Shown in pieces: positions 11,951 to 12,231 of a DNA stretch of 64,000 nt (the first letter of the stretch is position 1; every line of letters starts with the position of its first letter). A model generated the notes under the pieces. That model was given only the letters and a program-made list of their open reading frames with translations, did no database searches and was not told the DNA's origin. The translations under genes and the position numbers were made by a program. The stretch covers positions 76,492 through 140,491 of the forward strand of contig JAPLXG010000006.1 of NCBI GenBank assembly GCA_026396175.1. The letters are read 5' to 3'. Origin of the DNA: Candidatus Moraniibacteriota bacterium (lineage in GTDB: Bacteria; Patescibacteriota; Minisyncoccia; Moranbacterales; UBA2206).

Positions 11951-12231
11951 ATCCCGCACTAACTTTGCACTTTTCTCAGTAAAATAAGTAATATGACTTA
12001 CGCGTTCACCAAAAGCAACCTTCAAAGCGCCTGGTTTGCTAGAGCTTATTACTGCTTGTATTAATCTCTAAGACTAAGTAGTTTCCTCCAGAATAGCCCT
12101 GGCTATAGATAAGCTTGCTTTTGGCAAACGCGTAAGTCCTAAAGTTATTTAGAGTAAAGGTGAAAAACAGTTGGCTTGGTGTCGCGGAAAACTATTTGGC
12201 ACTTCGTGCCAGTGCAAAGTTAGTGCGGGAA
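11951..12231. repeat. Family H element: 282-bp rod-like nested inverted repeat bounded by 19/20-bp TIRs ATCCCGCACTAACTTTGCAC / GTGCAAAGTTAGTGCGGGAA (candidate MITE or 6S-like structured RNA)
   Basis: Nested complementary pairs seen directly: 11951-11970 with 12212-12231; GACTTACGCGTT with AACGCGTAAGTC; CAAAAGCAA with TTGCTTTTG; AGCTTAT with ATAAGCT. Confidence 0.6.

Follow-up and report, generated by a model that had tools for sequence, protein, structure and literature searches.

A rod-like inverted repeat between rny and hup in a Candidatus Moraniibacteriota bacterium is probably a MITE-like element carrying a nested palindromic insertion

The spacer between the genes for RNase Y and a HU-like DNA-binding protein in a Candidatus Moraniibacteriota bacterium contains some 280 bp of DNA built from inverted repeats, which raises the question of whether this locus holds a structured RNA, a regulatory site or mobile DNA. 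The two flanking genes, rny (an open reading frame at 10414–11946; its identical protein is listed with the Pfam domains RNase_Y_N, KH_1 and HD) and hup (12368–12652; Pfam Bac_DNA_binding on the identical protein), both lie on the + strand of the window, by which we mean the whole 64,000-nt stretch of DNA that was analysed. A repeat finder applied to window positions 11800–12400 returned outer arms of 23 nt with 96% complementarity (11949–11971/12211–12233) and inner arms of 31 nt with 87% complementarity (11992–12022/12111–12141), so that both the paired ends and the internal segment pairs described in a first-pass annotation of this DNA were found where it had placed them. The 64-kb window contains exactly two copies of the 18-mer CCCGCACTAACTTTGCAC, in inverted orientation, against 0.01 occurrences expected. 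Folding of a 296-nt stretch spanning the rod gave -107.7 kcal/mol for the + strand (z = -8.05) and -118.3 kcal/mol for the - strand (z = -10.2), with none of 200 shuffled sequences folding as well, and no open reading frame of at least 40 amino acids was present within 11952–12230. The evidence set out below makes it likely that the 280-bp structure consists of two non-coding mobile DNA elements, one nested in the other, and that the outer one is a MITE-like member of what we term the CCCGCAC family.

In order to see how the locus is built in relatives, we used the RNase Y protein to scan species-representative genomes, which yielded 80 loci, mostly from Candidatus Moraniibacteriota; hup follows rny in more than 60 of these 80. 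The termini of the rod were found at only three of 81 rny loci (705 kb), namely in the window, in L001 and in L027, and a blastn search with the element against the 80 loci matched L001 alone. In L001, a 121-nt element occupies the same site and has the same termini, while the sequence corresponding to window positions 11990–12145 is missing: the inner segment pairs are therefore a separate, nested insertion rather than the internal bubbles of a single rod, as had first been proposed. This inner palindromic insertion (11990–12145, no strand assigned) is 156 nt long, is flanked by AAGT on either side and carries its arms (TATGACTTACGCGTTCACCAAAAGCAA) on the + strand at 11992–12022 and 12111–12141; no further copy of it was found in the window or in approximately 0.8 Mb of related loci. 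Same-species Logan contigs from four sequencing runs overlap by just 16 nt at 12114–12129, within the inner right arm, with L126 and L127 ending at 12129 and L081 and L083 starting at 12114; repeats, polymorphism or low coverage are possible reasons for these breaks. Five further relatives (L002–L006, with 86–94% RNase Y identity) have an empty site, in which the rny stop codon is followed almost directly by CCATTTGCTTTATTTAAAGCAATTGTAGTAAAAT. This block contains the putative hup promoter (TTGCTT-18 nt-TAAAAT, + strand, 12240–12269, 10 nt downstream of the element in the window) and is kept in L001–L006 and L009 irrespective of whether the element is present. The element is hence dispensable, since close relatives live without it.

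The third occurrence of the termini is of separate origin: L027 (81% identity) carries an independent 65-nt element, CCAGCACTAA...TTAGTGCTGG, which is flanked by TGTG and splits a TGTGGATAA box that is intact at this position in L007 and L010–L012. Long inverted repeats unrelated to the element were also encountered in the rny-hup spacers L007:5533-5630, L008:5533-5690 and L010:5545-5635. With the spacer itself unconserved and relatives containing such varied insertions, the site is to be regarded as an insertion hot spot and not as the home of a gene. The distribution of the element does not follow the relatedness of its hosts: nucleotide identity in rny is 95.8% between L001 and L003 and 90.3% between L001 and L002, and the window shares approximately 80% with each. 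L001 equals L003 until the last rny codons, where it reads CGCTAG (CGTTAG in the window, AGATAG in L003), and downstream of the element it again equals L003. Given that the element is shared by the window and L001, and not by L003 as the closest relative of the latter, and that the last rny codon of L001 is window-like, spread by recombination is possible; with moderate confidence, the comparison of these sequences suggests that the element and a few flanking bases passed between lineages by homologous recombination and not by fresh transposition. In ENA sample ERZ1426829, a contig encoding an identical Hup protein has a rny-hup spacer of 252 nt as opposed to 421 nt, which may be an allele with different element content. 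As a separate observation, the hup 5' leader of L001 (5715–5765), L002, L003 and L006 contains, downstream of the promoter and ahead of the start codon, a GC-rich hairpin (e.g. CCTGCCCACATCGCTTCGCGCGAAGTGTGGTGGGTGGGG), in place of which the window shows an alignment gap.

The outer element of the window (11952–12230, + in standard orientation) measures 279 nt, or approximately 123 nt once the nested insert is subtracted. Its left terminal inverted repeat, T-CCCGCACTAACTTTGCAC-T, occupies 11952–11971 (+ strand) and aligns with the family consensus; its right counterpart, AGTGCAAAGTTAGTGCGGG-A, was located at 12211–12230 (+ strand) by both the repeat finder and the family alignment. These 20-bp termini are complementary at 19 of 19 positions plus a T:A end pair. 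A subterminal hairpin, GGCAC-TTC-GTGCC (12198–12210, + strand), was recognised by hairpin search and alignment; it abuts the right terminus and takes the position that we designate P3. The search for further family members consisted of a single metagenome scan with the exact 19-mer terminus AGTGCAAAGTTAGTGYGGG, which matched 42 contigs, and in approximately 37 of these an inverted partner was present 61–135 nt away. Termini identical to those of the window are thereby found in about 37 metagenomic copies, so that the search for other elements bounded by this repeat, recommended at the outset, was successful; a cognate transposase, which was to be sought along with them, did not turn up in the flanking genes examined. 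The exceptions comprise a contig end (L099), a 5'-truncated copy (L086), two copies with degenerate left arms (L085 and L118, the inverted partner of L118 being detected only by relaxed matching) and two chance matches (L110 and L123). The last two were considered as ends of a larger element and rejected: their GC content is 56–58%, compared to 34–50% in true copies, and they have no partner terminus.

Dereplication, with the window and L001 added, resulted in 28 copies at about two dozen intergenic sites. Across these the termini are near-invariant (Y-CCCGCACTAACTTTGCAC...GTGCAAAGTTAGTGCGGG-R, the inverted pair also being written YCCCGCACTAAC...GTTAGTGCGGGR), and the interiors are variable. 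The copies fall into a short class of 61–83 nt and a long class of 121–135 nt, with the window copy belonging to the latter. Short copies are composed of terminus, P2 hairpin, AATT-like linker, P3 hairpin, a single A and terminus; long copies contain, after the first terminus, approximately 80 nt of AT-rich sequence, followed by TTTGCGCC-TTT-GGCGC, A and terminus. Compensatory changes affect all 5 predicted pairs of P2. For P3, an anchored hairpin search, in which stem lengths differ among copies, identified, in 22 of the 28 copies, a hairpin whose last base immediately precedes the right terminus, with at least 9 different stems. The interiors of the short class have a mean fold z of -2.5. 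Every copy is intergenic, and the neighbours are unrelated housekeeping genes (M50 peptidase, PMT_2 glycosyltransferases, RmuC/NrdR, HrcA, rpsL, S1, PheT, GreA and a nucleotidyltransferase). Judged by the P3 hairpin, the elements point in either direction relative to these genes. Sampled hosts fall within Moranbacteria/Parcubacteria: a Candidatus Moranbacteria MAG encodes a protein with 100% identity to PheT of L102, and among named proteins the one most closely related to the L122 neighbour comes from Parcubacteria. Two hosts with M50 proteins of just 57% identity carry identical termini. Our literature search brought up neither a paper in which the terminus sequence appears nor a description of MITEs from the candidate phyla radiation or Parcubacteria; the family of the outer element, which extends across Moranbacteria/Parcubacteria metagenomes, is not known to have been described before. 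One of the contigs, L108, displays a cluster at 11361–11556 with three tandem left termini, each after GGGGyTTGAC, and closes with one complete 64-nt copy; these are partial duplications of a CCCGCAC element and lie upstream of greA.

None of the flanking genes examined around family copies encodes a transposase. A partner terminus 1–3 kb away, as an autonomous parent would have, was present in 0 of the 42 contigs, with the restriction that an exact 19-mer scan misses slightly different ends. A scan of viral contigs with the terminus gave 0 matches, neither plasmid nor phage collections contained one when searched in distant mode, and blastn-short against the window revealed no further copy of the outer or the inner element. 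With one copy and one diverged relative in the 64-kb window and one exact terminus on the 558-kb contig L097, copies per genome look few for a MITE (roughly 1 per 60–500 kb).

Evidence of transposition comes from the flanks of the 28 copies. Positions -5 to -2 on the left equal positions +2 to +5 on the right at 98 of 112 positions (24–25 of 28 at each), compared to approximately 30 of 112 in other registers; the duplication is restricted to 4 bp, because left -1 matches right +6 in only 7 of 28 copies. Between the duplication and the element, 27 of 28 copies have complementary bases at -1 and +1 (T:A in 15, C:G in 12). The duplicated tetramers are TCAA (8 copies), TTGA (4), TAAA (4), TTTG (3), CACA (2) and others; L027 shows a perfect TGTG duplication, and a clean duplication is absent from the copies in the window (TTTA/AAAT) and L001 (GCCA/AAAA). 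Together, the family of terminal inverted repeats and the 4-bp duplications lead us to retain the MITE half of the original proposal of a 6S-RNA-like rod or a MITE; the 6S half falls, with no Rfam match and with relatives that lack the element. A second feature of the flanks concerns promoters: 11 of 28 copies lie against an outward-facing promoter-like site with a score of 9/12 or higher, several of these reaching 11–12/12, whereas for shuffled flanks the average was 0.56 and the highest value 4. In 10 of these 11 copies the -35 hexamer begins 1 nt from the element end, with TTGA as the duplicated tetramer. The adjacency to promoters would thus follow from a TTGA target preference, the -35 box itself being the duplicated sequence. 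From this we infer that a preference for TTGA/TNAA, combined with very short and signal-dense intergenic regions, accounts for the targets; an active preference for promoter DNA might exist as well. In three independent cases (L092/L097, L111 and L027) the insertion divides a TTATCCACA/TGTGGATAA box, the duplication being TGTG or CACA. Apart from the insertions, this perfect DnaA-box-like 9-mer (TGTGGATAA / TTATCCACA) is situated just ahead of the hup -35 box in a number of Moraniibacteriota, namely L007, L010, L011, L012 and L027 (e.g. L027:5608-5616); L092, L097 and L111 have it as well.

A mechanism compatible with these observations would begin with a transposase supplied in trans that binds both outer termini; a 4-bp staggered cut of the target would then give rise to the 4-bp duplication, and a preference for TTGA/TCAA and TAAA would cause copies to land on -35 hexamers (TTGACA) and some of them on TTATCCACA boxes. 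At rny-hup, the unrelated 156-nt palindrome (11990–12145) would have entered the outer element after the arrival of the latter. The composite lies in the rny 3' UTR, upstream of the hup promoter, and on read-through transcription from rny is predicted to form a very stable hairpin, which could as a by-product affect 3'-end stability or RNase III cleavage. One feature sits less comfortably with simple mobility: a cut-and-paste MITE has no obvious need for the compensatory changes in P2 and P3, which are therefore a hint of a constraint at the level of single strands or RNA. They lend themselves to a more ambitious, though unlikely, reading, according to which CCCGCAC is a low-copy, horizontally spreading family that targets -35 and DnaA-box-like sites and whose folded form is needed for an unusual mode of mobilisation or for a role at host promoters. 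The folded form would in this case be a three-way junction composed of the invariant 19–20-bp stem and two position-fixed, covarying hairpins. If this were true, genomes thought nearly free of mobile DNA would contain mobile promoter-proximal modules. Counting mismatches in the long stems by eye did not settle which strand is transcribed: G:U pairs (approximately 9) and A:C pairs (approximately 5) were indecisive, and the count is biased by the way in which copies were retrieved.

Promoter proximity is also what commends a quite different explanation, in which the 20-bp arms serve as operators for a regulator of the host, active at the S10 and rpoB promoters as well, and the elements are promoter-proximal regulatory modules as opposed to selfish DNA. 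The first-pass annotation had suggested that a shared protein-binding site could link the rny-hup, tuf-rpsJ and rpoB sites. In addition to the 11 of 28 copies that abut a strong -35/-10 pair, the explanation draws on a repeat between tuf and rpsJ (52231–52373, + strand), whose arms CCCAACACTAAATTTCAC (52231–52248) and GTGAAATTAGTGTTGG (52358–52373) bracket the promoter of the S10 operon (TTGACG at 52321–52326 and TACAGT at 52344–52349, separated by a 17-nt spacer). The kinship of its terminus (YCCAACACTAATTYCAC) to that at rny-hup, noted from the outset, held up on alignment: 15 of 19 aligned columns are identical with two 1-nt gaps (shuffle p ~1e-4), and nothing else in the window, the element itself aside, matches the terminus as well as the left arm does. 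Moreover, the relaxed signature CC-N1-2-CACTAA...TTAGTG-N1-2-GG was found only at rny-hup and tuf-rpsJ in 790 kb of related loci selected independently of the motif, compared to approximately 0.1 occurrences in shuffled sequences. In four relatives with identical S10 (L128–L131), the arms are themselves kept and bracket a conserved TTGACG-17 nt-TA(C/G/A)AGT, with the left interior being variable. Since the arms bracket the S10 promoter, the right arm forms the start of the S10 leader. The flanking repeat of this element is degenerate (TTTG vs TTGT, TTAT or TTAC), and we take it to be probably an old, diverged relative of the CCCGCAC family that is now fixed. It encloses, as first described, a hairpin; this is 46 nt long and 89% identical to a sequence at 31489–31534. 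The latter, in the rpoB-rpoC spacer, and the copy at 52269–52314 share the nested GC-rich form TTCGyATGTCCCCCrTTCGTAGyGGGGGTTyGCGAAGCrAATAAC, which looks like another small insertion family and is absent from the tuf-rpsJ spacers of L128–L131. The S10 leaders of L129 and L130 contain extra GC-rich hairpin insertions of approximately 80 nt.

In case of rpoB, the link is of a different quality. The promoter, TTGACActaatttgcgaattagtgTATAAT, does contain a perfect palindrome with 9-nt arms (ACACTAATT/AATTAGTGT) at 27643–27664, as had been reported; its likeness to the S10 arm and the terminus, by contrast, extends over only approximately 10 nt (ACACTAATTT, which is common to the tuf-rpsJ repeat). 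Same-species contigs have an identical palindrome, whilst it is missing in L137 (93% RpoB identity) and L138 (90%), the spacers of which differ; L138 has the same rpoB promoter with approximately 8 substitutions in the spacer. A conserved operator was for this reason rejected as an identity for the palindrome, which is best treated as species-specific, conceivably a newly evolved operator, and as unlinked to the other two sites until shown otherwise. The proposed three-way connection is only partly supported: the rny-hup and tuf-rpsJ repeats are probably related, although the latter is kept in relatives as part of the S10 promoter region, and the part involving rpoB finds no backing. As for the neighbourhood, rpoB and rpoC are adjacent in the window and L138, unlike in L137 (GCA_041643395.1), where a gene for a 1629-aa protein with NosD, Beta_helix and Metallophos domains lies between them (5321–10210). 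Beyond the loss of the rpoB site, operators would not explain the insertions evident from 4-bp duplications and empty sites, nor arms that lie 26–240 nt apart across the family with no fixed phasing; the promoter adjacency would be explained by the TTGA target preference, and in the window the element is not even adjacent to the hup -35 box. We consequently hold the operator explanation to be quite improbable.

Very strong folding, with z values of -8 and -10, is what would be expected of a structured non-coding RNA gene, either a 6S-like rod or another stable RNA with paired ends, and the maintenance of two small hairpins by compensatory changes within the family, together with a transcribed neighbourhood between two + strand genes, could be read in the same way. 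Against this, the locus (11850–12360) gave nothing in Rfam at E <= 10, covariance models for 6S RNA included, so that the comparison suggested at the outset ended without a match even at this permissive threshold. At gathering score, Rfam returned only two tRNAs for the whole window, and for ten related loci only tRNAs and no family for the elements; the short-class copy L087 produced, at E <= 10, only sub-threshold matches to eukaryotic miRNA-precursor-like hairpins on both strands. The closest relatives, which are without the element, keep both flanking genes and the promoter. Family members measure anything between 61 and 279 nt and differ entirely in their interiors, they face either way with respect to genes, and 4-bp duplications flank the copies. 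For the rny-hup element, neither a + strand promoter of its own nor a terminator was found. An RNA gene is hence very unlikely.

The same small hairpins could instead point to a single-strand DNA element mobilised by a tyrosine (HUH/Y1) transposase in the manner of REP/RAYT or IS200/IS605, given that they are fixed in position and conserved in structure but not in sequence, which is a feature that such enzymes recognise. Target-site duplications are not made by IS200/IS605 elements or REPs, whose ends are asymmetric; the clear 4-bp duplication and the symmetric 20-bp terminal repeat of the CCCGCAC copies therefore speak against an origin of this kind, and no Y1 transposase was seen beside any copy, which renders this possibility highly improbable. 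Finally, the hairpin might have evolved locally as a terminator of rny or to stabilise its mRNA; this would fit a start 5 nt past the rny stop codon and the unrelated inverted repeats at the same spot in L007, L008 and L010, but is barely credible given that no + strand terminator-like site is predicted in 11700–12900, that the sequence after the stem (AAAATCCC) contains no T-run, that the same termini recur at about two dozen unrelated loci and that in several relatives the hup promoter follows rny with nothing in between.

Returning to the nested mobile elements, how do they compare with systems that are already known? With 6S RNA the rod shares an elongated, imperfect hairpin with internal loops, but it is approximately 100 nt longer, has no Rfam 6S match and is not conserved in sister lineages, and its "bubbles" are the junctions of the nested insertion. 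A tempting false positive is thereby removed: what appeared as a "rod RNA" with z = -10 in a candidate-phyla-radiation genome is two nested insertions. Regarding transposon families, the ends of IS1380 and piggyBac elements take the form CC(C)...GGG and are accompanied by a 4-bp duplication, which is TTAA for piggyBac. The CCCGCAC elements resemble them in their CCC...GGG ends and in 4-bp T/A-rich duplications (TTGA, TCAA, TAAA, TGAA), but differ in an extra variable Y:R pair between the duplication and CCC. The IS1380 family has been paired with the piggyBac superfamily (PMC5718144). No transposase of this or another family was found near any CCCGCAC copy, and membership in IS1380/piggyBac, which is suggested by analogy of the ends, serves as a lead only.

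Functionally, the outer element is a bacterial MITE of the type of Correia (Neisseria), ERIC (enterobacteria), RUP (Streptococcus pneumoniae) or Nezha (cyanobacteria). In common with these it is non-coding and intergenic in a range of 60–150 bp, has terminal inverted repeats, short duplications and presence/absence between close relatives, can form a long hairpin when co-transcribed and is frequently close to promoters. To our knowledge, the CCCGCAC terminus is unrelated to the termini of any of the four. They reach tens to hundreds of copies, compared to an apparently low number, roughly 1 per 60–500 kb, for CCCGCAC, and further unlike them the CCCGCAC termini are nearly invariant across hosts with approximately 57% identical proteins and a covarying hairpin is held at a fixed position beside one terminus. 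In Moranbacteria/Parcubacteria, where mobile DNA is little described in very small genomes, a 20-bp terminus and a 4-bp duplication now define a compact family that can be searched for; since filled and empty sites differ at 96% rny nucleotide identity, it can also be used as a strain-level marker. By landing exactly on -35 boxes, these MITE-like elements moreover allow promoter architecture to be studied through naturally occurring variants in organisms that do not grow in culture on their own.
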